Shown piece after piece: positions 17,476 through 56,192 of a stretch of 64,000 nucleotides of DNA. The DNA comes from Myxococcota bacterium (GTDB taxonomy: Bacteria; Myxococcota_A; UBA796; UBA2385). Where the stretch lies: assembly GCA_044344255.1 (NCBI GenBank), contig JBIJDH010000016.1:64001-128000 (forward strand), given 5' to 3'. Every line of letters begins with the position of its first letter. Position 1 is the first letter of the stretch. Position numbers and translations under genes: made by a program. The notes under the pieces were generated by a model. The model was not told where the DNA came from, made no database searches, and worked only from the letters and a program-made list of their open reading frames with translations.

Positions 17476-20010
17476 CTACAGCCGAGGATCGACCGGCTCG
17501 CTCTCGAGGGCCAGCACGCCGAAGGCGGCGGCGTGGACCCGCGCCAGCGGCTCGCCCTCGACGAAGCGGTGCAGCCCCTCGAGGCCGAGGAGGAATTCCT
17601 GCATCGCGAGGCGGCGCTTCCCGCCGAGACCGCGGCTCTTGAGGCGAGGGAGCTGGTTCGGCAGCGTATACTCGGGACCGTAGATGATGCGCAGATACTC
17701 CCGCCCGCGGCACTTCACCGCCGGCTGCACGAAGCCCTTCGGGCCGCGGTGGAGGAAGGCCTTGGGCTTGACGACCATGCCCTCTCCCCCTGCCGCGGTC
17801 ATCTCCTCCCACCAAGCGATGGCGCTGGCCACGGCGGCCTCATCGGCGAGCTGCACCGCCCTCCAGCGGGTGGGGAAGAGCGGGCCCGGGCGGGCGTCGC
17901 AGAGGCGGCTCGCCATCTCCATGTGCCAGGCGTGGTCCTTCCGGTCGTGGACCGCCCCCTCGCTGGCCAGCAGGTGAAAGGGCGCGAGCCGGAGGTCGAA
18001 CACGGACGAGACGGGCCAACAGTATCGCCTCCAGGCGGCCCGGTACCCCTCCACGGCCTGCAGGCGGGCCCGGGTCTGCTCCATCAGGGCGCCCACCTCC
18101 CGCCCCGCTCCCGCCGCCTGCGAGAGCGCCTCCACGGCGGCGCCGAGGGCCAGCGCGGCGGAGGTGCCGACGGGGGCGTACTGCTGGCGGAGGAGATCCT
18201 GGGCCTTCGCTGACCAGGGCATGAGCTCGCAGTCGAGGCACAGCCAGTCGGTGCGGAGCTCTGTCCAGAGCCCCGCCGCCTCGGCCGCCGCGCGCACCTC
18301 CTCGAGGAGGGCGGCCTCGAGGGCCCCGTCGTTGAAGAAGGGCCGGCCCGTGCGGGAGAGGATCCGGCCGCTCCCCGCCTCGACGCCGAAGCGGCGCCGG
18401 GCCGCGGCCTCATCGCGACAGACGACGACCACGGCGCGGCTCCCCATGTGCTTCTCTTCGCAGACCACCTCGTCGACCCCCTGGTCTCGGTAGTAGGAGA
18501 AGGCCTCCTCCGGGCGCTCGAGCCAGCCCTCTTTGCGGCTGGTCGCGCAGGGTGACATGGTGGGGGGGAGGTAGATGAGCCAACGGGGATCGGCGGAGAA
18601 GCGGCTCATCACCTCGAGGGCGGCGGCCGCCTCATCCTCGGGGACCGCCACCACGGGGCCCATGCGGGTGATGATGTGCTGGCGGCCGACCAGCGGCTCG
18701 AGGTCGAGCGCGGCGGCCGCTCGGAGGGGAGCCGGGGCCCGCGCCCCCGCCTGCAGGGGCCGGCTGGGCGCGTAATATTCGCGGGCCGCCTGCACGCTCC
18801 GGAGCTCCCGCTCGGGGTACCGCAGCGCGGTCAGCTTGCCGCCGAAGACACAGCCGGTGTCGACACAGACGGTGTTGTTGAGGTAGGCCGGCTCGGGCAT
18901 CGGCGTGTGCCCATAGACCACCAGCGCCTTCCCGCGGTAATTCACCGACCAGTCCTGTCGAACGGGGAGGCCGTATTCGTCAATCTCGCCGGTGGTGTCC
19001 CCGTAGAGGCAGAAGTCGCGGACGCGCCCCGAGGTGCGGCCCTGGTGCTGCGCCTTGATCCCGGCGTGGGCGACGGCGAGATCACCGCCGTCGAGCATGT
19101 AGTGGCTCACGAGGCCGCCGAGGAATTGGCGGACCTCATCCCGAAAGGCCGGGGTCTCCTGGGCGAGCTGGTCGAGCGACTCCTTCAGCCCGTGGTTGAC
19201 CTTCACTTCACGGCCGGACAGGGCCTTCACGAGCTTCACGTCGTGGTTCCCTGAGACACAGAGGGCCTCACCGGCAGCCACCATCCCCATCACCCGGCGC
19301 AGGACCGCCGGGACGGCGGGGCCGCGATCGACGAGGTCGCCGAGGAAGACGGCGCGTCGGCCCGCGGGGTGGCGCCGCAGGCCGCCCTCGCCCTCGGCGT
19401 AGCCCAGGCCCTCGAGCAGGGCCTCGAGCTCGTCGGCGCAGCCGTGGACATCGCCGATGATGTCGAAGGGGCCTCGCTCGTCGCGGCGGTTGACCCAGAG
19501 TCTCTCCCGCTCGATCTCCAGCGTGTCGGCCTCTTCGGGGCTGCGGAGGACGGTCACATAACGGACACCCTCCCGCTCCAGCTCCCGCAGCGAGCGGCGA
19601 AGGTTGGCGGTCTGGGCGTGGATGGCGCGGGGGCCGACTGTGCGGTCCGGGCGGGCGGCGTCGCGGTCAATGCAGACCTGGGGATCGACCGCGAGCACGA
19701 TCGCTGCGACGAAGACGTGCTGCCGGCGCGCGATCTCGAGGAGGGGCCGCCGCGCCTCGGGCTGGACGTTGGTGGCGTCGATCACCGTGAGGCGGCCGCC
19801 CTTCAGGCGCTCCTCGGTGATGTGATTGAGCAGCGCGAAGGCGGCGGGGGTGATGAGCTGGTCATTCGGGTCATCGGCCAGCATCTCGCGACAGGCGTCG
19901 CTCGACACGACCTCGGAGGCCTTGAAGAGGCGCCGCGCGAGGGTCGATTTTCCGGCGCCGGAGGGCCCGACGAGGAGGACGAGGCAGAGCTCGGGGAGGT
20001 TCAGGCGCAT
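17476..20010 (-). CDS. pnkp: bacterial polynucleotide kinase-phosphatase-ligase (Pnkp)
   Basis: Kinase GPSGAGKS; metallophosphoesterase GDVHG/GDLVDRG/GNHD/GHT; ligase motif EEKHMGSR; downstream of hen1. Confidence 0.95.
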   Translation of the reverse strand: MRLNLPELCLVLLVGPSGAGKSTLARRLFKASEVVSSDACREMLADDPNDQLITPAAFALLNHITEERLKGGRLTVIDATNVQPEARRPLLEIARRQHVFVAAIVLAVDPQVCIDRDAARPDRTVGPRAIHAQTANLRRSLRELEREGVRYVTVLRSPEEADTLEIERERLWVNRRDERGPFDIIGDVHGCADELEALLEGLGYAEGEGGLRRHPAGRRAVFLGDLVDRGPAVPAVLRRVMGMVAAGEALCVSGNHDVKLVKALSGREVKVNHGLKESLDQLAQETPAFRDEVRQFLGGLVSHYMLDGGDLAVAHAGIKAQHQGRTSGRVRDFCLYGDTTGEIDEYGLPVRQDWSVNYRGKALVVYGHTPMPEPAYLNNTVCVDTGCVFGGKLTALRYPERELRSVQAAREYYAPSRPLQAGARAPAPLRAAAALDLEPLVGRQHIITRMGPVVAVPEDEAAAALEVMSRFSADPRWLIYLPPTMSPCATSRKEGWLERPEEAFSYYRDQGVDEVVCEEKHMGSRAVVVVCRDEAAARRRFGVEAGSGRILSRTGRPFFNDGALEAALLEEVRAAAEAAGLWTELRTDWLCLDCELMPWSAKAQDLLRQQYAPVGTSAALALGAAVEALSQAAGAGREVGALMEQTRARLQAVEGYRAAWRRYCWPVSSVFDLRLAPFHLLASEGAVHDRKDHAWHMEMASRLCDARPGPLFPTRWRAVQLADEAAVASAIAWWEEMTAAGGEGMVVKPKAFLHRGPKGFVQPAVKCRGREYLRIIYGPEYTLPNQLPRLKSRGLGGKRRLAMQEFLLGLEGLHRFVEGEPLARVHAAAFGVLALESEPVDPRL

Positions 20011-21407
20011 CGGGTGAACACCGCCATCTGGGTCGGGGCGCCGAGCTCGGGGTGGGCCTCACCGATGCCGGAGTGGGCGACGGTGTAGCCGTGCTCCGCG
20101 CAGCGCCCTTCACACCAGGCCTGGAACTCGGCGCGGGTCCACTCGAAGCGGTGGTCTCCGTGGCGGAGCGTGCCCGGAGGGAGGCCGGCGAAGAGCGTGT
20201 TGTACTCGACGTTGGGCGTGGTGAGGAGGATCGTGGGCGGGCGGAGCGCCCCGAAGATCGCGGCAGAGAGGGAGGGGAGCCAGAAGGGCTCGAGGTGCTC
20301 GATCACCTCGACCATCACGAGGGCGTCGGCCCCCTCGAGGCGGGGGTCCCGATAGGGCGCGGAGCCTTGGAGCAGGCGCAGGCGGCCCGGCTCCCGGTCC
20401 TCGATCCGCTCGAGATCGAGGCGCCGGGCCGTGATCTGGAGCGTGCGCACCGAGACGTCGACGCCGGTGAGCCGCGTGAAACGAGGCTCCTGGACCAGGG
20501 CCTTGAGGAGCTTGCCCTCGCCGCAGCCCATGTCGATGACCGATCGGGCGCCGGCGGCCAGGAGCGCCTCCCTCACGGCGGCGATGCGCCGCTGGTCGAG
20601 CGAGAGGGGGCGCTCCATCGCCGACTCGCCTCGACCCCGCTCGATCTCCTCGGCCTCGGGATCGGCCTCCACCACGCCCTCTCCGGCGAGGCGGGACAGG
20701 ACCTCGCGCGAGAGGCTCCGCGCCGCCTTGCCGAGGAAGCGCTCGGTGATGAGCGTGCGCTCGGGGTGGTGCTCCAGCCAGCCCTGGCCGTGCCGGAGCA
20801 GCTTCTCGGCCTCCTCGCGGTCGACCCAGTAGTGTTTCTCGGCGTCGAGGACGGGGATCAGCACATAGAGGTGGTTGAGCAGGGCCGAGAGGCGGACGGT
20901 GGCCGACAGGGTGACCTTGGCCACCCGCGCCGCCCCCCAGTCGGGGCGGGTCTCGTCGAGGGCGGGGGCCTCGATCTGCAGCGTGTAGCCGAGCGGGGCG
21001 AAGAGGCGCTCGATCAGCGCTGGCCCGCCTCGACAGGGCAGGGCGGCGAGGGTGGCCACGAGCGGGATGGGCGTCGCGGCGAGGGTGGGTCGCTCTTTAC
21101 ACTCGCCGCTCATCGCGTTTCGGAGGACCTGCGCCATCGCCACCGCGAAGAAGCTGGAGGCGACATAGGGCCGATCATTGACATACTGCTGCAGCGCGAA
21201 ACCCTCACCCTCGTCTCGGCGGACGAGGCCGACGGGATCGATGTCGAGCAGGAGGGCCGCGGTGCAGCGCTCGGGGGTGGCCTCTGGATAAAATACGGTA
21301 GCAACGCCCCAGTTCAGGTCCCAGCTCTGTACGCGATCGGGGTGCTTGTAGAGCAGGTAGCCGAGGTCTGTGGCGGGTGTGTGGGTGGTGGTCAGCGTGA
21401 GCAGCAT
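20001..21407 (-). CDS. hen1: 3'-terminal RNA ribose 2'-O-methyltransferase Hen1
   Basis: N-terminus MLLTLTTTHTPATDLGYLLYKHP; SAM motif DMGCGEG; EVIEH; HRFEW. Confidence 0.95.
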   Translation of the reverse strand: MLLTLTTTHTPATDLGYLLYKHPDRVQSWDLNWGVATVFYPEATPERCTAALLLDIDPVGLVRRDEGEGFALQQYVNDRPYVASSFFAVAMAQVLRNAMSGECKERPTLAATPIPLVATLAALPCRGGPALIERLFAPLGYTLQIEAPALDETRPDWGAARVAKVTLSATVRLSALLNHLYVLIPVLDAEKHYWVDREEAEKLLRHGQGWLEHHPERTLITERFLGKAARSLSREVLSRLAGEGVVEADPEAEEIERGRGESAMERPLSLDQRRIAAVREALLAAGARSVIDMGCGEGKLLKALVQEPRFTRLTGVDVSVRTLQITARRLDLERIEDREPGRLRLLQGSAPYRDPRLEGADALVMVEVIEHLEPFWLPSLSAAIFGALRPPTILLTTPNVEYNTLFAGLPPGTLRHGDHRFEWTRAEFQAWCEGRCAEHGYTVAHSGIGEAHPELGAPTQMAVFTRCA

Positions 21408-21416
21408 CGCGGTGGC

Positions 21417-22478
21417 CTAACTCGGGCCCGCTCCGAGGCGCCGCAACATCCGAAAGTGGCTCCGCAGCGCGGCGGGGAAGCTGCCGCTGTGGAGGTAGGG
21501 GAGGCCGTGCTCGCGGGCGCAGGCGGCGACGATCGGCGCCAGGCGCGGCAGGTGGATGTGGCAGACATGAGGGAGCAAATGGTGCTCGATCTGGTGGTTG
21601 AGGCCGCCGGTCATCCAGGTGGACAGCGGGGTCGCCCCGAAGTTGGCCGTGGTGTGGAGCTGGTGATCCGACCAGGCGTAGGGGAGTCTCCCCTCCGAGC
21701 CCTCGGGATAGGCGACCCCCTCGACGCAGTGGGCCATCTGAAAGATCACCGCCAGCGTGACCCCCGCGCCGACGAGGCTCGCCGCATAGCCTGCGAGCGC
21801 GACGCCGACGCCGTGATCGGTGAGCAGGAGCGGGGCCACGACGAAGAGGCCGATGTGGAGCAGCTTGCCGCACAGGAGCTCGCAGCGCGCGGAGAGGGAG
21901 GCCGCGGCTCCGGTGATGGGGTCTCTCCAGGTGATCTGTTCGAGGTCCTTTCGATAGACCCAGTTGACGACCACGAGCGCATAGAGAAAGGGGGCGTAGA
22001 GGTGCTGGAGTCGGTGCCAGGGCCTGCGGGCTCCCGGGTGAAAGGCGAGCAGCGGCCCGGGATCGAGATCGGCGTCCGCGCCGGGCACGTTGGTCCAGCT
22101 GTGGTGGAGCCCATTGTGAGAGACCCGCCAGTTTCGCGAGGAGCAGCCGACCACGTCAAAGGTCCACGAGAAGAGCGTGTTGACCCAGCGGCGGCGCGAC
22201 AGGGCCCCGTGAACGGCGTCGTGGCCGACGTTGAGGGTCATCAGGGCCGCGGAGGCGCCGGTCAGGAGCCCCATCCCGAGCCAGGGCAGGGTCGGCAGGG
22301 GGAGGGCCAGCCAGAGGGTCCACATCAGGGCGAAGGTGCCGATCCAGGCTGCGATCTTCACCATCATCGCGCCGTTTGCGGTGGTGGGCTCCCCGCGCTC
22401 GGCGAAGTGGCGCTCCACCCGCGCGCGCAGGTCGGCGTGAAAGGCGGAGTGGGGGGCGAAGCGGGGGCGGGCGCTCAT
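21417..22478 (-). CDS. membrane fatty acid desaturase
   Basis: His boxes HDAVH, HNGLHH and QIEHH; ATGA overlap with the upstream acyltransferase. Confidence 0.9.
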   Translation of the reverse strand: MSARPRFAPHSAFHADLRARVERHFAERGEPTTANGAMMVKIAAWIGTFALMWTLWLALPLPTLPWLGMGLLTGASAALMTLNVGHDAVHGALSRRRWVNTLFSWTFDVVGCSSRNWRVSHNGLHHSWTNVPGADADLDPGPLLAFHPGARRPWHRLQHLYAPFLYALVVVNWVYRKDLEQITWRDPITGAAASLSARCELLCGKLLHIGLFVVAPLLLTDHGVGVALAGYAASLVGAGVTLAVIFQMAHCVEGVAYPEGSEGRLPYAWSDHQLHTTANFGATPLSTWMTGGLNHQIEHHLLPHVCHIHLPRLAPIVAACAREHGLPYLHSGSFPAALRSHFRMLRRLGAGPS

Positions 22479-23221
22479 GGGGCCTCGAGCGGTGGGGCGG
22501 CGGGGGCGGTGGCGGCGGTGGGGGCGCTCCGGAGGGCCTCGAGGCGCTCTCGGACCCGCTCCCGCAGCGCCTCCCGGCCCTCGGGCGTGTCGGGGCAAGG
22601 CGGGATGGCCTCTCCGACGCGGAGCTCCACTCTCCCCTGGCGACAGAGGGCTCGCCCGGGCGGCATGAGCTCAAACATGCCCACCACGGCGACGGGAACG
22701 ATGGGCACGCCCGCTCCCGCCGCGATGTGAAAGACCCCCTTTTTCAGCGGGCCCAGCCGCCCGTCCTTGGAGCGGGTGCCCTCCGGATAGACCACCACGC
22801 TCGTCCCGGCGCGGAGGCGCTCCACTACCGTCGCGCAGGCCTGCTTGGCGGCGGCGGGGTCGTCCCGTCGGATGAAGATCTGCCCCCAGTATCGAGCGGC
22901 GCGGCCATAGACCGGGTACCGCTGCGTCTCGGCCTTCTCGAGCCCGATGGTGCGCCCCGGGAGCAGGGAGAGGGCGAGGAAGTGATCAAAGAGCCCTTGG
23001 TGGCTCGACATGTAGAGGGTCGGGCGGTCGGCCGAGAGGCGCTCGCCGCCCACGAGCACGGCCTCGATCCCGAGGGCCTTGAAGAAGCGGCGGGTGAGGT
23101 CGATGACCCGCGGCGTGAGCTCCGCCGGGCTGTTGAAGCGGCTGGCGACGATGAACCAGAGCAGGAGGCGGGCGAGCGCGAGGTAACCGAGCCCGTTGCG
23201 GAGGAGGCCCGGCCGGCTCAT
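22475..23221 (-). CDS. 1-acyl-sn-glycerol-3-phosphate acyltransferase (PlsC/LPLAT family)
   Basis: SHQGLFD (HxxxxD), FIRR, YPEGTRS, PIVPV. Confidence 0.9.
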   Translation of the reverse strand: MSRPGLLRNGLGYLALARLLLWFIVASRFNSPAELTPRVIDLTRRFFKALGIEAVLVGGERLSADRPTLYMSSHQGLFDHFLALSLLPGRTIGLEKAETQRYPVYGRAARYWGQIFIRRDDPAAAKQACATVVERLRAGTSVVVYPEGTRSKDGRLGPLKKGVFHIAAGAGVPIVPVAVVGMFELMPPGRALCRQGRVELRVGEAIPPCPDTPEGREALRERVRERLEALRSAPTAATAPAAPPLEAP

Positions 23222-26200
23222 CGGGGGCCCCCGAAGCCTTCGATCGCCGCGAAGAGGGCCTCCACGACGGCGTCAACGTGGGGTGGGCGCAGCGTGTCGA
23301 AGTGGCCGCCGGGGATAGGCAGCACGCGCCCGAAGCGCGACTGGTGGTGGTTGACACAGGACGCCGTCGCGAGGAGGGCGGAGGGCCCCGAGAAGGTGTG
23401 CGAGGGGCGATGTGCGGCGCTCAGGCGCGCGTTCTCCAGCCACTGGCGCACCTCCTGGCCGACGGCGGCCTGGAGCTCGCGATCGGCGATCGAGGCCACC
23501 GCCGCCTCGATCGAGAGCGGACCGCGGCGCAGCAGGGCCAGCATCTCCCGGGTGTCGGCGGCGGGCAGGCGCTCGCGACAGACCGTGAGCAGCACGCCGA
23601 GCTCCGGGCCGTAGGGGCTGGCCGCGATCTCGGCGGGCTCTTCGTGGAGCTCGTCGATGGCGATGAAGCCGAGCACCGACCGCCCGGCCGCCTCGAGCTG
23701 CTCGGCCATCTCGCGGGCGACGGTGCCGCCGAAGCTGTAGCCGCCGAGGAGGAGGGGGCCCGCCGTGGCCTCCGCGGGCAGGGCGGCGATGTAGCGGGCG
23801 GCGAGCTCCCCTACCGAGGCCGCGGGGGCGAGCTGCTGGAGGCCGAAGAGGGAGCCTTGCCAGCGGTGGGCGAGGTCGAGGTAGCAGGAGAGGCCGCCGC
23901 CTGCGGGGTGCACGAGGATGAGCGGCGGCCCGCCGGACTCGCCTCCTCGGTGTAGGGTGACGAGGGCGGGATCGGGCAGCCGGGCGTCCGGGCGGGCGCG
24001 CACCCAGGCCGAGAGCGCGCGGACCGTCTTGTGCTCGGCGAGGGCGGTGACCGGCAGGTCGACCCCGAGGCGCTCGCGGAGGAGGTTGACGAGGTCGAGG
24101 GCCTCGATCGAGTCGAGGTCGACCTGCTCACCCACCGGGCGATCGGGATCGAGCTCCTTGCGGGTCACCTCGAAGAGGGCGAACAAGATGAGAGCCTCGA
24201 CCCCGGCGCTGTTCCCGCCGAGGGTCCCGCCAAGGGGCCCGCCGATGGGCCCGCCGATGGGAGGGCCGGCGGCGACCTCGGCCGCGGACTCGCCGGCGAC
24301 CCGCTCGACCACCAGGAGCGCGCCCTCCCGGTACCGCCGCGCGCACTCCCGTCGGCGCACCTTGCCGCTCGTGGTCTTGGGCAGCGAGCGCGGCTCGAGG
24401 AGCGAGAGCTCGGCCACCCGCACGCCCTCCGCCTTCATCACCTCGCGGCGCACCGCGGCGGCGATGCTGTCGGCCTCTCCGCGGGACAGGCGCCTCTCGC
24501 GGAGCTCGGCGACGAGCACCAAGCGCTCCCCCTCGGGGCCCTCGACGACGAAGGCGGCCGAGCAGCCCGGACGCAGCGCCTTGTGGGCGCCCTCTGCCGC
24601 CCGCTCTACGTCCACGGGGGCGATGTTGCGGCCGCGGAGGATGATGAGGTCCTTCGCGCGGCCGGTGATGAAGAGCTCGCCGTGGTGGAGGAAGCCGAGG
24701 TCTCCGGTGCGGAGGTAGGTCTCGCCCTCGCCTTCGCCCTCGCCTTCGATGCGCGCAGCGAAGGTGGCGGCGGACTCTTCGGGGCGCCCCCAGTAGCCGA
24801 GGGCGCGGCTGGGGCTCGACACCCAGATCTCTCCCACCTCATCGGGATCGGCGCGGTGGCGGGTCTCGGGGTGGATGATGGCGACCCGCACCGACTCGGG
24901 GGGCTTGCCGCAGCCGACCACCCGGGTGGTGCCGAAGCGGATGCGGCCCTCGAGCTGGAGGGCCACCTTGTCGAGGTGGAAGAGCCGGCTCCCGTTCATC
25001 GTGACGGCGACGACGTGCTCGGCGAGGCCGTAGGCCGGCTGGAAGGCGGCGGGGTCGAGGCCGGTGCTGGCGAAGGTGTGGGTGAAGTCCCGCACGGTCT
25101 CCCAGCTCACGGGCTCTCCCGCGCTCATCACCTGGCGGAGGGCGCTCCAGTCCCAACGGGCGCGCTGCTCGGGGGTGGAGCGCCGCGCGAGCAGGCGGTA
25201 GCCGAAGTCGGGGGAGGCGGTGGCGGTGGCCTTGTAGCGGTGGAGCATCTCCCCCCAGGAGGAGGGGTCGGCTAGGAAGGTGAGGGGAGAGGTGAAGACA
25301 TAGTGGGCGCCGCTGTAGAGCGCGTTGAAGATGCCGCCGATCAGCCCGAGGTCGTGGTACTGCGGCACCCAGCAGACGCCGACGGTGTCCCCGTCGATCT
25401 GCAGCGCCTGCGCCGCCACCCGAAGCTGGTGCATCAGGTTGCCGTGGCTGATCATCACCCCTTTGGGGTCAGCGGTGGAGCCGGACGTGAACTGGAGGAA
25501 GGCGAGGTCGTCGGGGCCGGGGTTCCAGGCGGGAAGGGGGCCCGAGGCGACGGCCGGCAGGTCGTCTGTGGTGTGCCAGGCGAGGTCCTTCGGCCACTTG
25601 AACAGAGAGAGCGGTGAGAAGATCGTGCCCACCTGGGTCATCCGCCGGTAGGGCCGCGTGCTGAGCGCGTGGCGGGCCCCGCTGGCGGTGGCGATGCTCC
25701 GGATCTTGTCGAGGTCGTACTTCAGGTTCGAGGGATCGGGCGGGTAGATGGGGACGGGCACGACCCCGGCGATGAGGCAGCCGAGCAGGCCGAGCACGAA
25801 GTCGACGCCCGGGAGGTAGACGAGGAGGGCCCGATCGCCCGGCGAGAGGCCCCAGCGGCCGCGCAGCGCCTCGGCGATGGCGCGCGACCGCTCCCAGACC
25901 TCGCCGTGGCGGAGGGCGGCCTCGGGCTCGAGCTTGGGGCCGAGGAAGGTGAGGGCGGGCCGCGTGCCGGCGACCTGGGCCTGATAAACGAGCACGTCGA
26001 GGATCGTGTGGCGCTCGCCCCAGGGCACCCGCGCCCCCGGCCGGTCCAGAGTGTAAGGCTGGACGACGGGGTACTCCTGGAGCCCGGCCATCACGCGGTT
26101 GGCGGCTTGGAGGCCGGTGACGACGGCGTCTTCGTGCAGGGTGAAGGCCCGGAGCCAGCTCCCGCAGAGGGTGGTCGAGCGCAGCCCCTGGCGGGCCTCG

Positions 26201-29200
26201 ATCTGACGCCGCAGGCGCACCACCTCGGGGGTCACCTTCACGTGCTCCATCGCCACCCGCCGCCCGCCCTTGGGCTGGAGGTCGCGGTTGTAGGCGTAGG
26301 TGGAGAACACGTCTGTCTGTCTGTCTTTGTTACACAGCGCCCACTTCGTGAAGTGAAAGGCCCGCTCGCGGCCGTGCACCTCGCCCTCGTCGGGGACGAT
26401 GGTGTTGCCGTGCGCCCAGCCAGCCCGATCGCGCGGCATCAGGCGGGGGTCCCTGTGGACCACGGCGGTGTCTACCGTGTGTTGAAAAGCGCCGAGCAGC
26501 GCGCGCTCTTCGGGGTCGACCGTGGCCCCCAAGACCTCGAGCGCCCGATGCGGGGCGACCGCGAGGATGAGCTCGTCCCAGTCCGCCTCCCGGCGGGGGT
26601 GCGCGGGCGCCCCCTCCCGCTCGGTCACGGGCTCCAACGAGAGGCGCACCCCGCGGGCGTCTCTCCGGAGGGCGGTGGCCCGGGTGCCGGTGTGAAACTC
26701 GACGCCGAGCTCGCTGAGGCGCTGGCGGAAACGGTCGATGTAGGCGCCGGAGCCCCGCTTCGCGCGGAGGACGGGCTCTCGGCCGGCGAGCACGACGGGG
26801 AGGTAACAATACCGGACGAGCTCCCGAATCGGGTAATCGAGGTAATAGTCGGCCGGGTGACCGACGAAGACGAAGATCATCGATCCGAGGAACCAGTAGT
26901 GGATGAAGGCCTCGGAGAAGCCCATCCGCTCGAAGTAGGCGCGGGCCGTGACGAAGTCGAGCTGCTCGTCCTCGAGCACGGCCCAGGGGTCGAAGCGGGC
27001 GGCCTCCTCGAGCACCGAGCGGTGGACGGTGATGTCCTCGATCCGGCGCCACCGCCGCTTACCGTCGAGCGAGAAGAAGGTCTCGGCCTCCTTGAAGCTC
27101 CCGAGCGCCTCGGTCTCGACGCCGAGCGTGTCCATCAATCGCAGCACGTTCGGATAGGCGCCGCCGGTGAAGGAGCCGAAGCCGGGGTCGACCGAGTGGC
27201 CGTCCTCGAGCTCGACGGACTGGGCGTGGCCGCCGAGGCGCGGCTTGTGTTCGATGACGGTGACGGCGTGGCCGTGCGTCGCGAGGGCGAGGGCCGCGGT
27301 GAGTCCGGAGGCGCCGCCGCCCACGATGGCCACCCGCCTCGGAGCGGCGCGCGGTGGAAAGAGGCGCGCGGTCGCCTGGTTGAGCTGATTTCGGAGGGCG
27401 GGTGAGCTGTCGTACACCGCGCGACGGGAGCGGTTCACGGCGCCCATCGGCGCGTGGGCCTGCGGGACATGGAAGAGGTGAAAGGAGAGCTGCTCGTCCC
27501 GCGCCCGGTCTTCGGGGGCGTTGATGGCCTGCGGGGGGATGTGCAGCGTCGCCACCACGCGCTCGGGGCCGGTCCATTGCACGCGCGGGTCTTCGATGGG
27601 GTCGCGGACGGGGTCGGTCTGCGGCTGGATGAGGAGGTCGAAGAGGACGTCGGAGGTCGCGCCGCGGAGGGCGGCCTCGAGCCGGCTCCGGAGGAAGCGG
27701 GGCTCGGACTCGTCCACCTTGACGGTGGCGCCCGGGGGCAGCGGGCGAGGCCGGAGGCGGTATTTCACGGCCCGGCCGGGGCCATAGCGGTAGGGGGTCT
27801 GGCTGTAGTAGGAGGCCGCGAGGAGATCGGGCACCACGAGCTCTTCGGCGTAGCGCAGCAGGTGCTCGAGCTTCATGAAGTCGAGGTCTTGTGGCACCAC
27901 GTCCCGCCCACGCCGCGTGGACAGGATGGGGACCACGTTGAGCAGGAGGTCTGCCAGCGTGTGGGTGGCGGCCTCCTCACCCCGGACGGGCGGCGCCTCG
28001 AGCAGCTTGAGGCCGACGCCGCGCACGTCGGGGTCGCGATCGTGGAACCAGCCGAGCTGCGGCTTGCCGAGGCTCGAGAAGCGCAGCAGGGCAGGGTAGG
28101 CGCGGCCGGGCTCGGCGAAGAGGCCCACCTGGAGCTCCTCTTCGAGGTCGGGGCGCACGACGAGGCGGGCGGAGACGACGCCGTGGGTCTTCGGGTGGCT
28201 GCCCCGGAGGGCCTTGCCGGCGAGGGGGGCCTCTGGCGCGCGGAAGTCGCGGATCTTCTTGTCGTACTGCTCGACGATGTGTCGACTGTCCTTGGCCTCC
28301 ACGCCGCGGTCGCGCTCGGCCTCCCGGGCGAGGCGGTGCTCGGTGAGCACGTCGTCGATGAAGGACTCGATCTGGGCGGCGACGACGGCGGGCGCGGCCT
28401 CGGCGACCCCCTGATCGGCCTCGGGCCAGCGCTCCACCCGAGGGTGGGGCAGGAAGCGGCGGAGGAGGCCAGGGTCAGCCGCCTCGGCCGGGACGCCGCG
28501 CGCGCCGGTGTAGAGCCAGAAGGTCGGTGTCTCGACCATCGGCACGGCGCCACCTTCGCGGGGCAAGACCATGTGTCGGGGGGCCCCCTCGCGGATCGCC
28601 GCCACCCGGCGGCCAAAGGCGGTCGGGCGGTCGACGTCCTGGGCGGTGAAGCGGCCCGGGGCCTCGGACCAGCTGAAGTTCTCCGCGTAGAGACGATGGA
28701 CGCGCTCCGCGTGGTCGCCCTCCTGCAGCGCGCGCGTCACGGCCAGGGCGCGGTCGGCGGCCCCTCGGTCGGCGGCCCAGAAGCTGGAGAGCAGGGCCTC
28801 GGCCTCGGGATCTCGGGCGGCGGCGCGACGGGGGAGGCTCGGATCGAGGAGATCGGCGACGTAGGCGGTGGCCTCGGCGAGGCGGACGGAGAGGCCCCGA
28901 TCAGCGGTGAAGCAGCCGGGGTGCAGGCTGTTGACGGCGAAGAGGGCACGGAGCGCCGCCGGGTCAGCGGCGGCGAGGCGGAGGGCGACCTCACCGCCAA
29001 AGCCGAGGCCGACCGCGACGGCCCGCTCGCGGGTCACCGCCCGGAGGATCGCCGCGCCGCGCTGGGCGAGGTCACTGAGGCGTGCGGAGCGGCCGGGGGC
29101 GTCGAGGCGGGGGACGAACAGCACGAAGAAGCGCGCCGCCAGGGCCTCGGCGAGGCCCCTCCCGAAGCCCTCCGGCTCGGGCGGGAGGCTGATCAGCAGC

Positions 29201-29352
29201 AGGGGCGGGGCCGCACGGTCTCCCAGCGGGTGGACCCGGCAACCCTCCACCTCGATCGGGGGGAGCTCCAGCGGGGCATTCGCGTCGATGCGCTCGGTGA
29301 TCGCCGTCCGCCCTTCTTCGAACTGCTGTTCATCGAGCTTTTTGTCGGACAT
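23218..29352 (-). CDS. multidomain lipid-modifying enzyme: alpha/beta-hydrolase-like, catalase-like heme domain, FAD oxidoreductase, fatty acyl-AMP ligase, ACP, thioesterase
   Basis: GLGFGG elbow; RGSHPKTHG...RFSS...RRAVY; GGGASG...LGGHA...HEDAV; QFTSGST, YHDLGLIG, YGLAE, RTGDLG, PKTTSGK; LDSI; HPAGG, GYSFG, GGH. Confidence 0.85.
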   Translation of the reverse strand: MSDKKLDEQQFEEGRTAITERIDANAPLELPPIEVEGCRVHPLGDRAAPPLLLISLPPEPEGFGRGLAEALAARFFVLFVPRLDAPGRSARLSDLAQRGAAILRAVTRERAVAVGLGFGGEVALRLAAADPAALRALFAVNSLHPGCFTADRGLSVRLAEATAYVADLLDPSLPRRAAARDPEAEALLSSFWAADRGAADRALAVTRALQEGDHAERVHRLYAENFSWSEAPGRFTAQDVDRPTAFGRRVAAIREGAPRHMVLPREGGAVPMVETPTFWLYTGARGVPAEAADPGLLRRFLPHPRVERWPEADQGVAEAAPAVVAAQIESFIDDVLTEHRLAREAERDRGVEAKDSRHIVEQYDKKIRDFRAPEAPLAGKALRGSHPKTHGVVSARLVVRPDLEEELQVGLFAEPGRAYPALLRFSSLGKPQLGWFHDRDPDVRGVGLKLLEAPPVRGEEAATHTLADLLLNVVPILSTRRGRDVVPQDLDFMKLEHLLRYAEELVVPDLLAASYYSQTPYRYGPGRAVKYRLRPRPLPPGATVKVDESEPRFLRSRLEAALRGATSDVLFDLLIQPQTDPVRDPIEDPRVQWTGPERVVATLHIPPQAINAPEDRARDEQLSFHLFHVPQAHAPMGAVNRSRRAVYDSSPALRNQLNQATARLFPPRAAPRRVAIVGGGASGLTAALALATHGHAVTVIEHKPRLGGHAQSVELEDGHSVDPGFGSFTGGAYPNVLRLMDTLGVETEALGSFKEAETFFSLDGKRRWRRIEDITVHRSVLEEAARFDPWAVLEDEQLDFVTARAYFERMGFSEAFIHYWFLGSMIFVFVGHPADYYLDYPIRELVRYCYLPVVLAGREPVLRAKRGSGAYIDRFRQRLSELGVEFHTGTRATALRRDARGVRLSLEPVTEREGAPAHPRREADWDELILAVAPHRALEVLGATVDPEERALLGAFQHTVDTAVVHRDPRLMPRDRAGWAHGNTIVPDEGEVHGRERAFHFTKWALCNKDRQTDVFSTYAYNRDLQPKGGRRVAMEHVKVTPEVVRLRRQIEARQGLRSTTLCGSWLRAFTLHEDAVVTGLQAANRVMAGLQEYPVVQPYTLDRPGARVPWGERHTILDVLVYQAQVAGTRPALTFLGPKLEPEAALRHGEVWERSRAIAEALRGRWGLSPGDRALLVYLPGVDFVLGLLGCLIAGVVPVPIYPPDPSNLKYDLDKIRSIATASGARHALSTRPYRRMTQVGTIFSPLSLFKWPKDLAWHTTDDLPAVASGPLPAWNPGPDDLAFLQFTSGSTADPKGVMISHGNLMHQLRVAAQALQIDGDTVGVCWVPQYHDLGLIGGIFNALYSGAHYVFTSPLTFLADPSSWGEMLHRYKATATASPDFGYRLLARRSTPEQRARWDWSALRQVMSAGEPVSWETVRDFTHTFASTGLDPAAFQPAYGLAEHVVAVTMNGSRLFHLDKVALQLEGRIRFGTTRVVGCGKPPESVRVAIIHPETRHRADPDEVGEIWVSSPSRALGYWGRPEESAATFAARIEGEGEGEGETYLRTGDLGFLHHGELFITGRAKDLIILRGRNIAPVDVERAAEGAHKALRPGCSAAFVVEGPEGERLVLVAELRERRLSRGEADSIAAAVRREVMKAEGVRVAELSLLEPRSLPKTTSGKVRRRECARRYREGALLVVERVAGESAAEVAAGPPIGGPIGGPLGGTLGGNSAGVEALILFALFEVTRKELDPDRPVGEQVDLDSIEALDLVNLLRERLGVDLPVTALAEHKTVRALSAWVRARPDARLPDPALVTLHRGGESGGPPLILVHPAGGGLSCYLDLAHRWQGSLFGLQQLAPAASVGELAARYIAALPAEATAGPLLLGGYSFGGTVAREMAEQLEAAGRSVLGFIAIDELHEEPAEIAASPYGPELGVLLTVCRERLPAADTREMLALLRRGPLSIEAAVASIADRELQAAVGQEVRQWLENARLSAAHRPSHTFSGPSALLATASCVNHHQSRFGRVLPIPGGHFDTLRPPHVDAVVEALFAAIEGFGGPR

Positions 29353-29555
29353 GCGGGGGCCTCTTCGACGGACGTTCAGCACGATGACACGGCGGAGCGG
29401 CGCTCGCGAGAGGATCTCACCCTCCAGGGATATGCCACAGCGCCCCGGATTATCATCCTCGCCGGTCCGCGCCGCGCCGGTCCGCGCTGCTGCGTCCTGC
29501 GCGGGAGGTCCGGTGGGGGGCTCATCGGTGGGTGTGTCTTCGTGGGAACGGGGGG

Positions 29556-32057
29556 TTGACGGTGAGCTCTGTCTTGGAAGTCCTCTCGGCGGTGTCGAGC
29601 CGAGCCTTGCTTTGGGGCCTGATCCCGCGGGGAATGGGCCTCGGCTACCTGCTCTGTTTCCTCCCGCTGTTCCCCCAGCTCTTGCCTTGGATCGGCGCCC
29701 GGGGGGTGATGCCGGCCGCAGACCTCCAGGCGGCGCTCCGGCGCGACACCCCCTGGCTCGGACGCCTCCGGCACAACCCGAGCTTGCTCTGGCTGGCAGA
29801 CTCCGACCGTGCCCTCCAGGGATGGCTGGCGCTCGGCGTCCTCGGCGCCAGCCTCGGGGTGGTCGGGGGCCTCTCGGGGCGGGTGGGCCTCGGGCTGGCC
29901 TTCCTCGTACATCTGAGCTTCAAGCGCGCCGCGCGGATGTACTACCCCTGGGACAACCTCCTCGCTGAGCTCGGCTTCTTGGCCCTCTTCTTGCCGACGG
30001 TGCCGCTGCTGCCTGCCCTCTCCGCGAGTGCGCTCCCTTCGCCCCTGCTCATCTTCGCCTTCCATTGGCTGTTGTTCCGGGTGGTCTTCGGCTTCGGGAA
30101 GACCAAGTTCTACGGGGTCACCCGGCAGGACTGGCTATACCTAAGGTATTTCCTGCTCAACATCCCCATCGTCACCAGAGTGGGGTGGTGGGCCAGCCGC
30201 CTGCCCGATCCGTTCATCCTGCTCGGACTCGTGTCGGTGGGGGTGGTGGAGCTCCTGGCGCCGCCCTTCCTGCTCTTCCCCGGGGCGGGCCGCCTGCTCG
30301 CCGCCGCCGCCATCGTCGCGCAGATGGGCGTCATTCAGGCGACGGGCAACTTCGGATATTTCAATGTGCTCTGTCTGGTGCTCTGCGCCGCCTGCCTCGA
30401 CACGGGCTCGAGCCTGCTCGACGCCGCCCAGGGCGGCCTGCTGTTCGAGCCCGAGCATCTGCCCTTCACCCTCGCCTTCGCCGTGATCTTCCCGGTGTCC
30501 GTGGCCGCGCTGGCCTTCAACAACTGGTTCAATTGTGCCTGGACGGAGTGGCCGGGCTTCCAGCGCCTTCGGCTGGGGCCCATCCGGGCCTGGGTCGCGC
30601 TCTGCCGGTGGGTCGAGCCCCTCCAGGTGGTGCACAGCTACGGCGTCTTCCGGGCCAGCCCGGCCCCGCCCGTCCGCTGGGTGACCACCGTGGAGGGTCG
30701 GATGTCCCCCACGGAGCCCTGGCGGCCCTTTCGCTGGCGTTGGACCCAGACCGACGCCCGGAGCACGCCCCGCTTCGTGGCCCCGCACCACCCCCGCCTC
30801 GACCACCTCTCCTTCTACGATGGGGTGGGCGTCGATGGCACGGGCTGGTTCCACGTCGTGAGCTTCGCCGATCCCTATCGGTTCAGCCGCGCGAGCCTGC
30901 TGGATCTCACGATGCACCGCCTCCAGGAGCCGGCCTCACCCGTCCGGCGCCTCTTCGCTGACGATCCCTTCGGCGGCCAGCCCCCCGCCGAGGTGCGGGC
31001 GGGCCTGTACCGCTTCTCTCCCACCACGCCGGCGCGCTTGCGAGAGACGGGCCAATACTGGGACGTCGCCCCCGTCGGCGATCACCTCCCGCCCTCCACC
31101 GGCGACTCCACGCTCTTCGCCGAGGCCAACCCGCCGCCGGAGCTGTGGCACTGGGAGGCGGTGCGCTGGCGCGGTCGGGCGCGAGTGGTCGCGGGGCTGT
31201 CCGCTGAAGCGGCCGCGCGCTTCTGGGAGGTGCTCCTGCCCTTCGTCCGCGAGCAGGCCGCCCTGGCTGGAGGAGGGGGGGAGCCCTACACCTGGGGTAC
31301 CCTCCCCACGGTGGCCCTGGCGCTGCGACAGCGCTTCAGCCGGGAGGAGCTGCGGGCCTTCGAGCTCAGCCATGGGCGCCTGCTCGTCGCCCAGCTCAGC
31401 CGCTTGGACGCCGTCTTCCGTCAGCCCGCGCGCCATTTCCTCCGCGACGTGGTGGGCATCGGCGTCGCCTCCGCGCCCGCCCCCTCGCCCGATCCGACGA
31501 CCGAGGCCGAGGCCTGCCTCCAGGCCCTCGCCGCCTGGCCCTTTGGCGGGCTGCGCAGCTCGTTCCGGCAAGGGATGGCGGTGTCCTGGTGCATGCTCCG
31601 AGAGGGGGAGGCTGGCTGGGCGGCCCTCTCGGGCCACCGCTTCGAGGCGGGAGCGCCCATCCCCACCTTCGCGCCCACCCCGCGCCTCGGCGCAGGCGGG
31701 ATGGCGGGGGTCGCCGCGGCGCTCGGGGTGGACGTGCCCCGCCTCGCCGCGCTCGGGGCCTCGCTCCGTGTGCCGGCGGGCATGTTTCTCCAGGGCGTGC
31801 TCGACTATGACACCCTCGCCCGCACGAGCGCCCGCATCGCGGTGCTCTACTCCTCCGATGACAGCTACAGCCCCGTGCCCACTGGCCTCGTGCCGGGCAG
31901 CTTTGACCTCGCCTGGGAGCTCCGGGCGAACCCGCTGCCCCCCATCCTGGGCTACGGCGCGGCGGCGCGGCGGGCGCCCGCCCTGGTGCCGCCGCGGATG
32001 CGCTTCGGCGAGGATGGTCGCTGGCGAGAGGCAGACAGCGGACGCCTGGTCCCCTGA
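29556..32057 (+). CDS. lipase maturation factor (LMF) family membrane protein with long C-terminal extension
   Basis: IGARGVMPA, YPWDNLLAELGFL, FRVVFGFG, TGNFGYFN, SYGVF, FVAPHHPRLD; start uncertain. Confidence 0.85.
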   Translation: MTVSSVLEVLSAVSSRALLWGLIPRGMGLGYLLCFLPLFPQLLPWIGARGVMPAADLQAALRRDTPWLGRLRHNPSLLWLADSDRALQGWLALGVLGASLGVVGGLSGRVGLGLAFLVHLSFKRAARMYYPWDNLLAELGFLALFLPTVPLLPALSASALPSPLLIFAFHWLLFRVVFGFGKTKFYGVTRQDWLYLRYFLLNIPIVTRVGWWASRLPDPFILLGLVSVGVVELLAPPFLLFPGAGRLLAAAAIVAQMGVIQATGNFGYFNVLCLVLCAACLDTGSSLLDAAQGGLLFEPEHLPFTLAFAVIFPVSVAALAFNNWFNCAWTEWPGFQRLRLGPIRAWVALCRWVEPLQVVHSYGVFRASPAPPVRWVTTVEGRMSPTEPWRPFRWRWTQTDARSTPRFVAPHHPRLDHLSFYDGVGVDGTGWFHVVSFADPYRFSRASLLDLTMHRLQEPASPVRRLFADDPFGGQPPAEVRAGLYRFSPTTPARLRETGQYWDVAPVGDHLPPSTGDSTLFAEANPPPELWHWEAVRWRGRARVVAGLSAEAAARFWEVLLPFVREQAALAGGGGEPYTWGTLPTVALALRQRFSREELRAFELSHGRLLVAQLSRLDAVFRQPARHFLRDVVGIGVASAPAPSPDPTTEAEACLQALAAWPFGGLRSSFRQGMAVSWCMLREGEAGWAALSGHRFEAGAPIPTFAPTPRLGAGGMAGVAAALGVDVPRLAALGASLRVPAGMFLQGVLDYDTLARTSARIAVLYSSDDSYSPVPTGLVPGSFDLAWELRANPLPPILGYGAAARRAPALVPPRMRFGEDGRWREADSGRLVP

Positions 32058-32122
32058 GCGTCGCTCGGCGGAGTAGGTGGGCTTGGTCGGTGGTCGCGTT
32101 CAATCTGGCTGTTGAGGTGCGC

Positions 32123-36072: not shown

Positions 36073-36081
36073 GGCGCGCCG

Positions 36082-37155: not shown

Positions 37156-37202
37156 GGCTGCTCCGCAGGGCCGTCCGAGGGCGCGCGCCCGAAACGATAT
37201 CG

Positions 37203-37245: not shown

Positions 37246-37270
37246 GGCGCCGCCGCGATAGGGCCGGCGG

Positions 37271-56186: not shown

Positions 56187-56192
56187 TCGGGT

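Follow-up and report, generated by a model that had tools for sequence, protein, structure and literature searches.

The locus described here raises the question of what a single bacterial protein does that joins a hydrolase-fold domain, a catalase-related haem domain, a flavin domain, a fatty acyl-AMP ligase (FAAL), an acyl carrier domain (ACP) and a thioesterase (TE), and whether such a fusion is real. The gene lies in a 64,000-nucleotide stretch of contig JBIJDH010000016.1 from a Myxococcota bacterium (assembly GCA_044344255.1), hereafter called the window. It forms one uninterrupted ORF (23218-29382, minus strand), which encodes 2054 aa when begun at an in-frame GTG at 29382 and has a GC3 of 0.90, similar to that of other genes in the window. 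An ATG at 29352 lies 10 codons inside this frame and is preceded, 8 nt upstream, by AAGAGG. Because of this upstream motif and the length of the database copy of the protein (P0002 in our protein collection), which has 2044 aa, 23218-29352 is the likely coding sequence, likewise of 2044 aa. Residue numbers given below are counted from the GTG start (2054-aa version), and the coordinates of all six domains refer to the minus strand. Among the 120 best matches of a housekeeping acyl-CoA dehydrogenase, 11 bear an organism name (5 Myxococcota, 1 Myxococcales, 2 'Deltaproteobacteria' and 3 Alphaproteobacteria), which places the source loosely.

As the draft genome comprises 83 contigs, the fusion might be an artefact of assembly or gene calling that joins separate genes. 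This explanation is refuted. The 2054 codons contain no stop, the domain order is common to 20 full-length homologues of 1864-2303 aa from several sources and phyla, and every domain junction is spanned with zero differences by contigs of four independent sequencing runs on lake or freshwater samples (four studies), none of them flagged as a possible source of the assembly. A few discordant joins in the read-contig mapping had sides of 21-22 letters and were taken as chance joins involving other organisms or repeats. Identity to the homologues is 44-53% over residues 1-680. Pfam detects AMP-binding, PP-binding, Thioesterase and Amino_oxidase in all 20 and Abhydrolase_1 in 18; three homologues (P0009, P0015 and P0019) carry an extra C-terminal Acyltransferase domain. 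In all 21 aligned fusions, the haem, FAD, ACP and TE domains keep their catalytic residues unchanged. The shared order, the invariant residues and the junction-spanning contigs together indicate a genuine fusion that is under selection. A preliminary description of the locus had placed six domains in this one ORF and had named an assembly artefact among the outcomes that would refute it; the domains and their limits are borne out by Pfam, NCBIfam, profile and fold searches, and the fusion stands. The motifs it had named are all present in the translation: RGSH (393-396), RRAVY (653-657), GGGASG (688-693), HED (1083-1085), LDS (1756-1758) and GYSFG (1881-1885).

The C-terminal half of the protein appears to be devoted to the loading and release of acyl chains. 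The ligase domain (24316-26010, residues ~1125-1689) matches Pfam AMP-binding at 1134-1531 (E 1.7e-58), and its best whole-domain NCBIfam matches are FAAL models over 1125-1689, all under their cut-offs. The top solved chains are FAALs as well, namely 7r7e (E 3e-109, end to end), 3kxw, FadD23 and FadD32. In the alignment with 7r7e, the segment from the YGLAE motif to the following Gly-rich stretch is interrupted by small gaps only; PMC8460268 gives a FAAL-specific insertion and a blocked CoA pocket as marks of the class. Judged by the NCBIfam and PDB matches, the ligase domain resembles FAALs more than acyl-CoA ligases, as the preliminary description had assumed. It is followed by the acyl carrier domain (24001-24201; Pfam PP-binding 1739-1794, E 4.8e-10), whose putative phosphopantetheine attachment site, Ser1758 of the LDS motif, is invariant in 21/21 fusions, and by the thioesterase domain (23248-23925; Pfam Thioesterase 1820-2045, E 1.2e-21). 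Ser1883 (in GYSFG), Asp1910 and His2027, equally invariant in 21/21, are assigned from motifs as the putative catalytic triad of a type I thioesterase (PF00975).

What may happen to a loaded chain is suggested by the flavin domain (26074-27336, residues ~683-1103). It has the amine-oxidase fold (Pfam Amino_oxidase 692-917, E 5.2e-21; NAD_binding_8 686-753, E 8.8e-16), and glycines G688, G690 and G693 of the GxGxxG Rossmann motif are invariant in the aligned fusions. BLASTP aligned it at full length with an FAD oxidoreductase whose gene lies in an rpoE-chrR/FAD/DUF1365/CFA-synthase operon (30% identity, E 1e-36, 127 bits). Among 110 plasmid records matching the domain, 102 cover at least 80% of it, and the two records inspected (H3 and H1) both harbour the FAD/DUF1365/CFA-synthase operon beside rpoE-chrR. 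The best solved relative, matching over the whole length, is LkcE (PDB 6f7v; 63.7 bits, E 1.6e-16). By its likeness to proteins in the ufaD position the domain is of the UfaD type, an assignment made solely through these ufaD-position proteins. This full-length likeness also upholds the earlier idea of a COG2907-like flavoprotein that modifies acyl chains, COG2907 being presumably the 'predicted NAD/FAD-binding protein' family. According to PMC7380195, UfaD is a proven fatty-acyl desaturase of the furan-fatty-acid pathway and its substrate is phospholipid-bound chains. UfaO (DUF1365, PF07103) was not found in the present genome, which is 95% complete, and a search of the genome for a UfaM-type methylase gave two marginal CMAS matches and no clear candidate. 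Lack of UfaO in turn leaves room for the neighbouring haem domain in the role of UfaO.

The haem domain (27379-28290, residues ~365-668) found no match in Pfam, NCBIfam or a single-sequence phmmer search of the PDB. Its family profile, in contrast, detected 3e4w (E 1.2e-20), catalases (1e-12 to 1e-8) and the coral allene oxide synthase (AOS) 1u5u (E 1.3e-9). An AlphaFold2 (AF2) model (pLDDT 87.7, pTM 0.89) gave the same picture, with 3e4y (E 3e-15) and 3e4w leading the Foldseek matches, followed by 1u5u (E 1e-12). Its fold is the catalase core of about 330 aa, as in haemoproteins of the cAOS/MAP-2744c type, and the additional domains of true catalases are lacking. BLASTP matched it (E 2e-24) to the N-terminal part of P0023, a further lipoxygenase fusion of the catalase-related domain, and its 26 near multi-domain relatives include three lipoxygenase fusions, three patatin fusions and one fusion with an animal haem peroxidase. 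The predicted distal His396, which the profile alignment sets on the catalase distal His, and the predicted proximal residues Arg653 and Tyr657 are invariant in 21/21 fusions; in the wider catalase-related family, His, Arg and Tyr occupy these ligand positions in 80/82, 81/82 and 81/82 sequences, respectively. From profile and model, the domain belongs with the small catalase relatives that handle hydroperoxides and not with true catalases, in line with the catalase-like assignment and the small-catalase background of the preliminary description. The distal pocket of the fusions has a signature of its own, GSH...LLN-x-x-PILST. The residue preceding the distal His is Ser, whereas true catalases have Val. 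An Asn at the catalase distal-Asn position, which we take to be two residues before the conserved Pro, is absent; this column holds Val here and Ser, Thr, Ala or Val across the fusions, and an invariant Asn482 is located one residue before it. Since the pocket thus differs both from catalases and from the wider family, AOS-like chemistry cannot be read from the sequence.

Comparison with other proteins shows that the haem-flavin pair recurs. The order catalase-related-FAD-C-FAD occurs in P0039, P0177 and P0178, whereas in P0181, P0182 and P0183, which also carry FAAL and ACP domains, a P450 directly precedes the FAD domain. Actinomycetes encode a catalase-related-FAD-ACP-TE-P450 protein, with a FAAL and a PfaC-like PUFA synthase encoded next to it. 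The catalase-like part of this protein was detected by hhalign only (96.7%, E 3e-10), in an alignment whose inspected part does not include the distal-His region. Considered as close relatives, the actinomycete loci were rejected: only the FAAL and part of the ACP-TE region match (tblastn, E 1e-8). In a Micromonospora relative, OsmC, a peroxiredoxin-type domain, stands in the place of the catalase-like domain, which fits disposal of peroxide as well as its productive use. Since P450s accompany this kind of flavin domain in other giant proteins and PUFA synthases lie beside it in actinomycetes, the flavin unit is broader than one genome, and it is open to testing in culturable strains of Amycolatopsis, Lentzea and Micromonospora.

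These arrangements bear on the idea that the flavin domain alone shapes the product, a fatty acid that is desaturated or conjugated and nothing more, and that the haem domain merely removes the H2O2 left by the flavin. Amine-oxidase-fold flavoproteins are commonly reoxidised with O2, the haem domain always sits next to the flavin domain, and one lineage replaces the haem domain with OsmC, all of which would suit a scavenger. However, P450s, which do not scavenge H2O2, take the same slot elsewhere, and both the Ser before the distal His and the grouping with hydroperoxide-handling small relatives set the domain apart from true catalases. We regard a mere clean-up role as quite unlikely.

Does the N-terminal domain (28363-29250, residues ~45-340) add a hydrolytic step? 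Its Pfam match to Abhydrolase_1 (105-163, E 0.008) is below the cut-off. The AF2 model (pLDDT 90.0) reveals an alpha/beta-hydrolase fold with a cap, for which Foldseek returned the epoxide hydrolases 8agn and 5ng7 and fluoroacetate dehalogenases as best matches (E ~1e-12). The nucleophile elbow reads G-x-G-F-G-G, and at the nucleophile position 20/21 fusions have Gly and 1/21 has Ala, never Asp or Ser; at the catalytic-His position, this protein has Ala, whereas 19/21 aligned fusions have His and one has a gap. Hence the domain is probably non-catalytic in this protein, and of the 'hydrolase-like' label it had been given, the fold holds and a working hydrolase does not.

The stop codon of the six-domain gene overlaps in an ATGA with the start of a PlsC/LPLAT-type acyltransferase gene (22475-23221, minus strand; Pfam Acyltransferase, E 4.7e-27), whose product carries the motifs HQGLFD (HX4D) and EGTR (within YPEGTRS), and the stop of the latter gene overlaps, again in an ATGA, with the start of a membrane fatty-acid desaturase gene (21417-22478, minus strand; FA_desaturase, E 5.1e-31; His boxes HDAVH, HNGLHH and HQIEHH). 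Related loci were recovered with an alignment query, as a single-protein query gave no relative. An acyltransferase homologue lies directly downstream of the six-domain gene in loci L011 and L012, and a FAAL-ACP-acyltransferase gene takes this position in L017. Co-expression with both enzymes had been proposed before; the acyltransferase is a conserved partner, fused to the protein in three homologues, but the desaturase is not, being present in 0/7 related loci (tblastn, E 1e-8). Divergently upstream lies a gene for an LMF1-like membrane protein (29532-32057, plus strand; Pfam LMF1, E 4.8e-25; LMF1_C, E 6.4e-14) with a conserved C-terminal extension of ~320 aa; its Atlas record begins at residue 26, i.e. 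at 29607. A homologue with 46-48% identity over the whole length is found in the same divergent position in 5/5 related loci that hold upstream DNA, and the homologues in L012, L013 and L017 likewise have both LMF1 and LMF1_C domains. This most conserved partner had been overlooked in the preliminary description. We predict that it acts as the partner at the membrane, and its conserved pairing with the six-domain gene provides a testable link for bacterial LMF1-like proteins, a literature search on bacterial lipase maturation factor gene clusters having returned nothing relevant.

The combination of an acyl-ACP synthetase with a PlsC-type acyltransferase is known from E. coli Aas, and the locus might accordingly serve repair or remodelling of membrane lipids in an Aas-like cycle with in-line clean-up: a phospholipase would free peroxidised chains, the ligase would recapture them on the ACP, the haem domain would serve as a peroxidase for fatty-acid hydroperoxides and the acyltransferase would re-esterify the lysolipid. 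FAAL-ACP plus a PlsC-type acyltransferase follows the logic of lysophospholipid re-acylation, and the FAAL-ACP-acyltransferase gene of L017 and OsmC in the haem domain's place in Micromonospora would fit such a cycle, as would a patatin gene located two genes upstream in the window and the patatin fusions in 3/26 near relatives of the haem domain. Yet patatin is missing from 7/7 related loci (tblastn, E 1e-8), it is hard to see what a flavin domain of the desaturase type would do in repair, P450s fill the haem position in other variants, and the thioesterase would undo the recapture. Repair is in our view an unlikely function.

Alternatively, the protein could be the starter module of a larger pathway derived from PKS, NRPS or PUFA synthases, passing an oxidised acyl starter to synthases encoded elsewhere. 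The genome does encode many KS-bearing proteins; condensation domains are present in the flavin-FAAL-ACP relatives P0181, P0183 and P0039; and a PfaC-like synthase adjoins relatives of the flavin-FAAL-ACP unit in Amycolatopsis, Lentzea and Micromonospora. However, the neighbouring genes scanned contain no KS or C domain, and neither is among the 16 Pfam families listed for the protein itself, as had been stated earlier. Moreover, the six-domain protein has its own thioesterase, and its conserved partners are a lipid acyltransferase and the LMF1-like membrane protein rather than synthases. We consider a starter role improbable.

The reading that we favour, at a probability of about one half, is that the six-domain protein tailors a long-chain fatty acid on its own, as a self-contained line. 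In favour are the genuine and conserved fusion, the small catalase-related haem domain, the UfaD-type flavin domain, the recurrence of the haem-flavin pair and the ATGA overlaps of the three genes; the genome also encodes a lipoxygenase and PfaC-like PUFA synthases at other sites. The FAAL would adenylate a free fatty acid and load it onto the enzyme's own phosphopantetheine arm. The flavin domain would then dehydrogenate the tethered chain with O2, much as UfaD makes a conjugated diene, and the adjacent haem domain would oxygenate or rearrange this chain at the expense of a peroxide, which could be an acyl hydroperoxide or the H2O2 that the flavin gives off. The product would be hydrolysed by the thioesterase or moved to a lysolipid by the translationally coupled PlsC-type acyltransferase; it is likely to be a fatty acid that has become oxygenated or conjugated by a route so far undescribed. 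Substrate, order of steps, chemistry and product are what we infer, next to the observed domain identities, catalytic residues and conservation of the fusion and its partners. Several observations speak against a tailoring line. UfaD, according to PMC7380195, works on phospholipid-bound chains and not on a carrier protein. The distal haem pocket departs from those of catalases and of the wider family, and the OsmC domain of the Micromonospora relative fits mere disposal of peroxide equally well. No lipoxygenase able to supply a hydroperoxide is present as a domain of the protein or as an adjacent gene. Thioesterase and acyltransferase are both kept, even in the fused forms, without an explanation, and neither of the neighbouring genes for a desaturase and a patatin is conserved.

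A more specific possibility, which we put forward tentatively and consider doubtful, is a lipoxygenase-independent, carrier-bound route to an oxylipin or furan-type fatty acid, in which flavin and haem domains would form a fixed redox pair, peroxide from the flavin would feed the haem and the LMF1-like protein would help the product into membrane lipids. If true, this would give the LMF1 family its first prokaryotic role. Lipoxygenases are the partners with which catalase-related haemoproteins have been known to occur. The present one is joined instead to a flavin desaturase and to a unit that loads fatty acids, which suggests that lipids are oxidised while bound to a carrier protein, a chemistry so far undescribed. 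Literature searches, with the supplementary architecture figures of PMC8460268 and PMC12820801 outside their scope, found no description of the six-domain enzyme, no paper joining catalase-related proteins with fatty acyl-AMP ligases and nothing relevant on the actinomycete combination of PUFA synthase, P450, thioesterase and amine oxidase.

Among known systems, the UfaD/UfaO pathway of Rhodobacter (Cereibacter) sphaeroides resembles our proposal in that, in the account given by PMC7380195, desaturation is followed by O2-dependent oxygenation of the chain. There, however, the chain is phospholipid-bound and the partner is a DUF1365 protein, whereas here the flavin domain is adjoined by a catalase-related haem domain and fused to FAAL-ACP, so that the chain would be carrier-bound. 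LkcE, the lankacidin amide oxidase/cyclase (6f7v), acts on an amide instead of a fatty acyl chain and is the more distant relative of the flavin domain (63.7 bits versus 127 bits for the ufaD-position proteins). With the 33-kDa protein of M. avium paratuberculosis (3e4w/3e4y) and coral AOS (1u5u, 3dy5), the haem domain shares the core fold, the distal His and the proximal Arg-x3-Tyr. Members of that family are commonly fused to lipid-oxidising proteins, as exemplified by the catalase-related/lipoxygenase fusions AOS-LOX and HPL-LOX of corals (PMC5617202), but the partner here is a flavoprotein with FAAL-ACP-TE and not a lipoxygenase. FAALs fused or adjacent to a lysophospholipid acyltransferase are on record (PMC12820801, PMC8460268); unlike the present protein, these systems and E. 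coli Aas have no oxidative domains and no thioesterase. Finally, the preliminary description had mentioned loosely similar flavoprotein-FAAL-ACP-catalase fusions of plants with a different domain order, and such plant fusions are real: a 2021 eLife article (PMC8460268) reports plant proteins of uncharacterised function in which a FAAL-like domain has HemY on one side and a catalase or amino-acid-oxidase domain on the other. No plant protein was among the homologues of the six-domain protein or in the search for its relatives. Compared by description only, the plant proteins combine the same three kinds of domain in one chain, in the order HemY-FAAL-catalase as opposed to catalase-like-FAD-FAAL-ACP-TE here. 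The six-domain protein could thus offer a bacterial handle on these uncharacterised plant HemY-FAAL-catalase proteins.

Translation of the GC-rich window (~72% G+C) revealed a single stop-free ORF on the minus strand (23218..29382; 2054 codons from GTG), whose GC3 of 0.90 equals that of the adjoining genes. An ATG at 29352, ten codons inside this ORF, follows the sequence AAGAGG at a distance of 8 nt, and the copy of the enzyme in the searched protein collection (P0002) comprises 2044 aa. The CDS was therefore taken as 23218-29352, which agrees with the upper limit proposed in the preliminary description; residue numbers used here run from the GTG. Pfam assigned Amino_oxidase/NAD_binding_8 (residues 686-917), AMP-binding (1134-1531), PP-binding (1739-1794) and Thioesterase (1820-2045), and FAAL models occupied the top NCBIfam rows for residues 1125-1689. 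These four domains lie where the preliminary description had placed them, the six motifs it quoted are all present in the translation and Pfam detects neither a KS nor a condensation domain, as it had likewise stated.

The fusion is not restricted to the window. When residues 1-680 were used as query against proteins of comparable length, 20 full-length relatives were retrieved (P0003-P0022; 1864-2303 aa; 44-53% identity over the query), as well as one lipoxygenase-bearing protein. AMP-binding, PP-binding, Thioesterase and Amino_oxidase are present in all 20 relatives and Abhydrolase_1 in 18, while three carry an additional C-terminal Acyltransferase, which in P0009 is located after the thioesterase. 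Within named genomes, the multi-domain gene was found at seven loci, being full length in Ilumatobacteraceae (L012), Terriglobia (L013) and Pyrinomonadaceae (L015, L017) and cut by contig ends in Vicinamibacterales (L011) and further Pyrinomonadaceae (L014, L016). In addition, DNA almost letter-identical to window positions 22400-29700 occurs in 20 runs of lake and freshwater metagenomes from 17 studies, three of these runs being a possible source of the assembly; the organism thus seems widespread in such waters. Contigs from four runs not flagged as source (X4, X9, X11 and X13) span every domain junction with 0 differences: X13 record 9 bridges the acyltransferase/TE/ACP/FAAL junctions, X4 record 20 and X9 record 29 bridge FAAL/FAD and FAD/haem, and X13 record 15, X9 record 30, X11 record 7 and X4 record 22 bridge the haem/N-terminal junction. 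Together with the 20 full-length relatives, these contigs rule out an assembly artefact. Of 40 related genomes (same family or order), none yielded a match across all 680 query residues, six of them possessing stand-alone catalase-like ORFs, and the haem-flavin pair gave no match at E 1e-40 in a phylum-wide sample of 400 additional genomes (two candidates scored per genome). The window's genome is probably that of a Myxococcota member; among the 120 best matches to a housekeeping dehydrogenase, 11 bear the name of an organism, eight of these being Myxococcota, Myxococcales or 'Deltaproteobacteria'. Judged from the genomes searched the gene is rare in its own lineage, which may point to horizontal acquisition.

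The stop codon of the six-domain gene shares the sequence ATGA with the start codon of a PlsC-type acyltransferase gene (22475..23221, minus strand; HX4D and EGTR motifs), and a second ATGA joins the stop of this acyltransferase gene to the start codon of a membrane desaturase gene with three intact His boxes (21417..22478, minus strand). Divergently upstream, at ~180-250 bp, an 841-aa LMF1-like membrane protein is encoded (29532..32057, plus strand). Its gene occupies the same position in all five related loci holding upstream DNA, and the corresponding proteins are 46-48% identical over their whole length, including a C-terminal extension of ~320 aa. A PlsC-type gene directly follows the multi-domain gene in L011 and L012, its place being taken in L017 by a FAAL-ACP-acyltransferase gene; an ORF of L015 equals the latter gene in length. 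The desaturase, patatin, Hen1, Pnkp, GSDH, TetR and second desaturase genes recur in none of the seven related loci. Thus, the conserved set consists of the LMF1-like protein and the six-domain enzyme, often joined by an acyltransferase.

Further features of the locus may be recorded here. The motif APHHPRLDH (residues 417-425) is invariant in the LMF1-like proteins of the window, L012, L013, L016 and L017, and the conserved extension of these proteins is absent from ordinary bacterial LMF1 proteins of ~470 aa; other bacterial LMF1 clusters are fused to DCC1-like thiol-disulfide oxidoreductases (Atlas). Directly downstream of the desaturase and on the same strand lies an RNA-repair pair, Pnkp (kinase/phosphatase/ligase, 844 aa) and Hen1 (468 aa; together 17476-21407, minus strand), which is probably a separate unit, since the seven related loci lack it. 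On the other side, the LMF1-like gene is followed by a patatin-like phospholipase gene (32090-33280, plus strand) and, somewhat beyond, by genes for a TetR regulator and a second membrane desaturase (35521-37386, minus strand); this lipid-themed neighbourhood is peculiar to the window's genome. More distant are genes for a KAP NTPase, a multi-GAF histidine kinase and a 1001-aa protein without Pfam family (48738-57905, minus strand), and a glutathione peroxidase gene, after which comes one for an ECF sigma factor (59345-60722, plus strand).

At the loading and release end of the enzyme, the FAAL domain aligned over its whole length with FAAL 7r7e (E 3e-109), and S1758 of the ACP as well as S1883, D1910 and H2027 of the thioesterase are invariant in the aligned fusions. 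The N-terminal domain, previously described as hydrolase-like, was modelled with a pLDDT of 90.0 and indeed has the fold of alpha/beta epoxide hydrolases and of fluoroacetate dehalogenases (E ~1e-12), but its catalytic positions do not bear out such an activity. The nucleophile elbow reads G-x-G-F-G-G, with Gly (20 of 21 fusions) or Ala (one) at the nucleophile position; the His after the last strand, present in 19 of 21, is Ala in the window's protein, where the GHVP of the family has become SLPP. We therefore regard the domain as catalytically inactive in the window's protein; it is perhaps a docking or binding module. The cap residues Y174 and Y232 are nearly invariant and may parallel the epoxide-polarising Tyr pair.

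The catalase-like stretch had no match in Pfam, NCBIfam or a single-sequence PDB search. It aligns with residues 222-554 of the lipoxygenase-bearing protein P0023 (31% identity, E 2e-24), and phmmer retrieved 2609 relatives at E 1e-3 from 1.84 billion representatives, most of them 330-380 aa long. A profile built from 82 of these matched the 33-kDa catalase-related protein of M. avium paratuberculosis (3e4w, E 1.2e-20), true catalases (E 1e-12 to 1e-8) and coral allene oxide synthase (AOS; 1u5u, E 1.3e-9); an AlphaFold model (pLDDT 87.7) matched the same three groups in the same order. In the profile alignment H396 corresponds to the catalase distal His and R653/Y657 to the proximal Arg/Tyr, all three being invariant in the 21 fusions and near-invariant in the wider family (80-81 of 82). 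Profile and model uphold the earlier assignment of this domain. The pocket of the fusions bears a distinctive signature, a Ser before the distal His, which we take to resemble the Thr at this site in coral AOS, and LLN-x-x-PILST where the wider family has D/N-x-PVFF. Among 26 longer near relatives, the partners were RoxA-like cytochrome c (five), lipoxygenase and patatin (three each), DyP peroxidase and SnoaL (two each), and, once each, an animal haem peroxidase, an NRPS-like protein with two FAD domains, a relative of the six-domain enzyme and an LsmAD/ankyrin protein; seven had no family as partner.

The flavin domain recurs in further giant proteins. P0176 and P0179 (domain scan) and P0180 (by its listed families) are FAD-FAAL-ACP-TE proteins lacking the two N-terminal domains. 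P0039, P0177 and P0178 (3030-3108 aa) have the order catalase-related-FAD-C-FAD and constitute another uncharacterised family with the haem-flavin pair; P0039 additionally contains PP-binding and a hexapeptide transferase. FAAL-P450-(cytochrome b5)-FAD-ACP-C is found in P0181 and P0183, and hydrolase-FAAL-P450-FAD-FSH1 in P0182. A haem domain directly precedes the flavin domain in the latter three groups. In the cultured actinomycetes Amycolatopsis xylanica (L024) and Lentzea tibetensis (L042) and in an actinomycete MAG (L021), a FAD-ACP-TE-P450 gene stands behind a FAAL gene, the N-terminal part of the Amycolatopsis protein matching the catalase-related profile (hhalign 96.7%). Micromonospora sp. 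CB01531 (L020), likewise cultured, shows the same gene order, with OsmC at the catalase-related position. No published account of this FAAL/catalase-related (or OsmC)-FAD-ACP-TE-P450 cluster was found. One main rival explanation holds that the haem domain merely disposes of H2O2 from the flavin; the OsmC variant speaks for peroxide handling as the shared theme, and the P450 variants speak for oxygenation. A peroxide-using oxygenase would fit both. Another main rival sees the assembly as a starter module that would serve a larger synthase. A PfaC-like PUFA synthase gene indeed lies just upstream of the FAAL gene in L024 and L042, and the Micromonospora genes also follow a PfaC-like gene. The window's genome encodes one whole PfaC-like synthase (G000:C58:76122-82481), pieces at the ends of contigs C4 and C41 that may represent a second one, and a lipoxygenase on another contig (G000:C17:61030-62109), which makes polyunsaturated substrates and their hydroperoxides plausible in the host cell.

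Taken together, the six-domain enzymes are a real, conserved and uncharacterised family, for which the constituent parts, the catalytic residues and the co-inheritance are directly observed. Their anatomy fits a line, its chemistry inferred, in which a free fatty acid would be activated and held on the carrier, desaturated by the flavin domain, oxygenated or rearranged by the haem domain, and finally released or handed to a lysolipid. The remaining main rival to this five-step line is a lipid-repair cycle. We found no report of a catalase-related domain linked to a FAAL, an arrangement that supplementary architecture figures of FAAL or UfaD papers may show.

Parts of the line have known counterparts. 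The top solved relative of the flavin domain is LkcE (E 1.6e-16, 63.7 bits, full length), and homologues carry the JGI name 'predicted NAD/FAD-binding protein'. By tblastn, 110 plasmid records matched, 102 covering at least 80% of the domain. In the two inspected, from Rhizobium daejeonense and Azospirillum oryzae, the match is the first gene of an operon (FAD-dependent oxidoreductase, DUF1365, CFA-synthase-family gene) adjoined by a divergent sigma-factor/ChrR pair; the Rhizobium protein aligns end to end (127 bits, 30% identity, E 1e-36). This layout equals that of the R. sphaeroides RSP1091-1087 operon, in which RSP1091 encodes UfaD and RSP1090 encodes UfaO, and in which the product increases when chrR is lost (PMC7380195). 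There, UfaD converts a 12t-monoene into a conjugated 10t,12t-diene on phospholipid-bound chains, and UfaO then inserts O2-derived oxygen and closes the furan ring. DUF1365 was not found in the window's genome, and CMAS matches there are marginal only. Other papers describe an Arabidopsis UfaM-UfaD-like fusion on lipid droplets (PMC10940516), FAALs in LPAT/AGPAT context (2026 survey, PMC12820801) and uncharacterised bacterial FAAL-acyltransferase fusions (eLife 2021, PMC8460268). The plant flavoprotein-FAAL-catalase fusions mentioned in the preliminary description are on record as well: the latter paper reports uncharacterised FAAL-like domains flanked by HemY and by catalase or amino-acid-oxidase domains. 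The six-domain enzymes unite known parts in a new combination.
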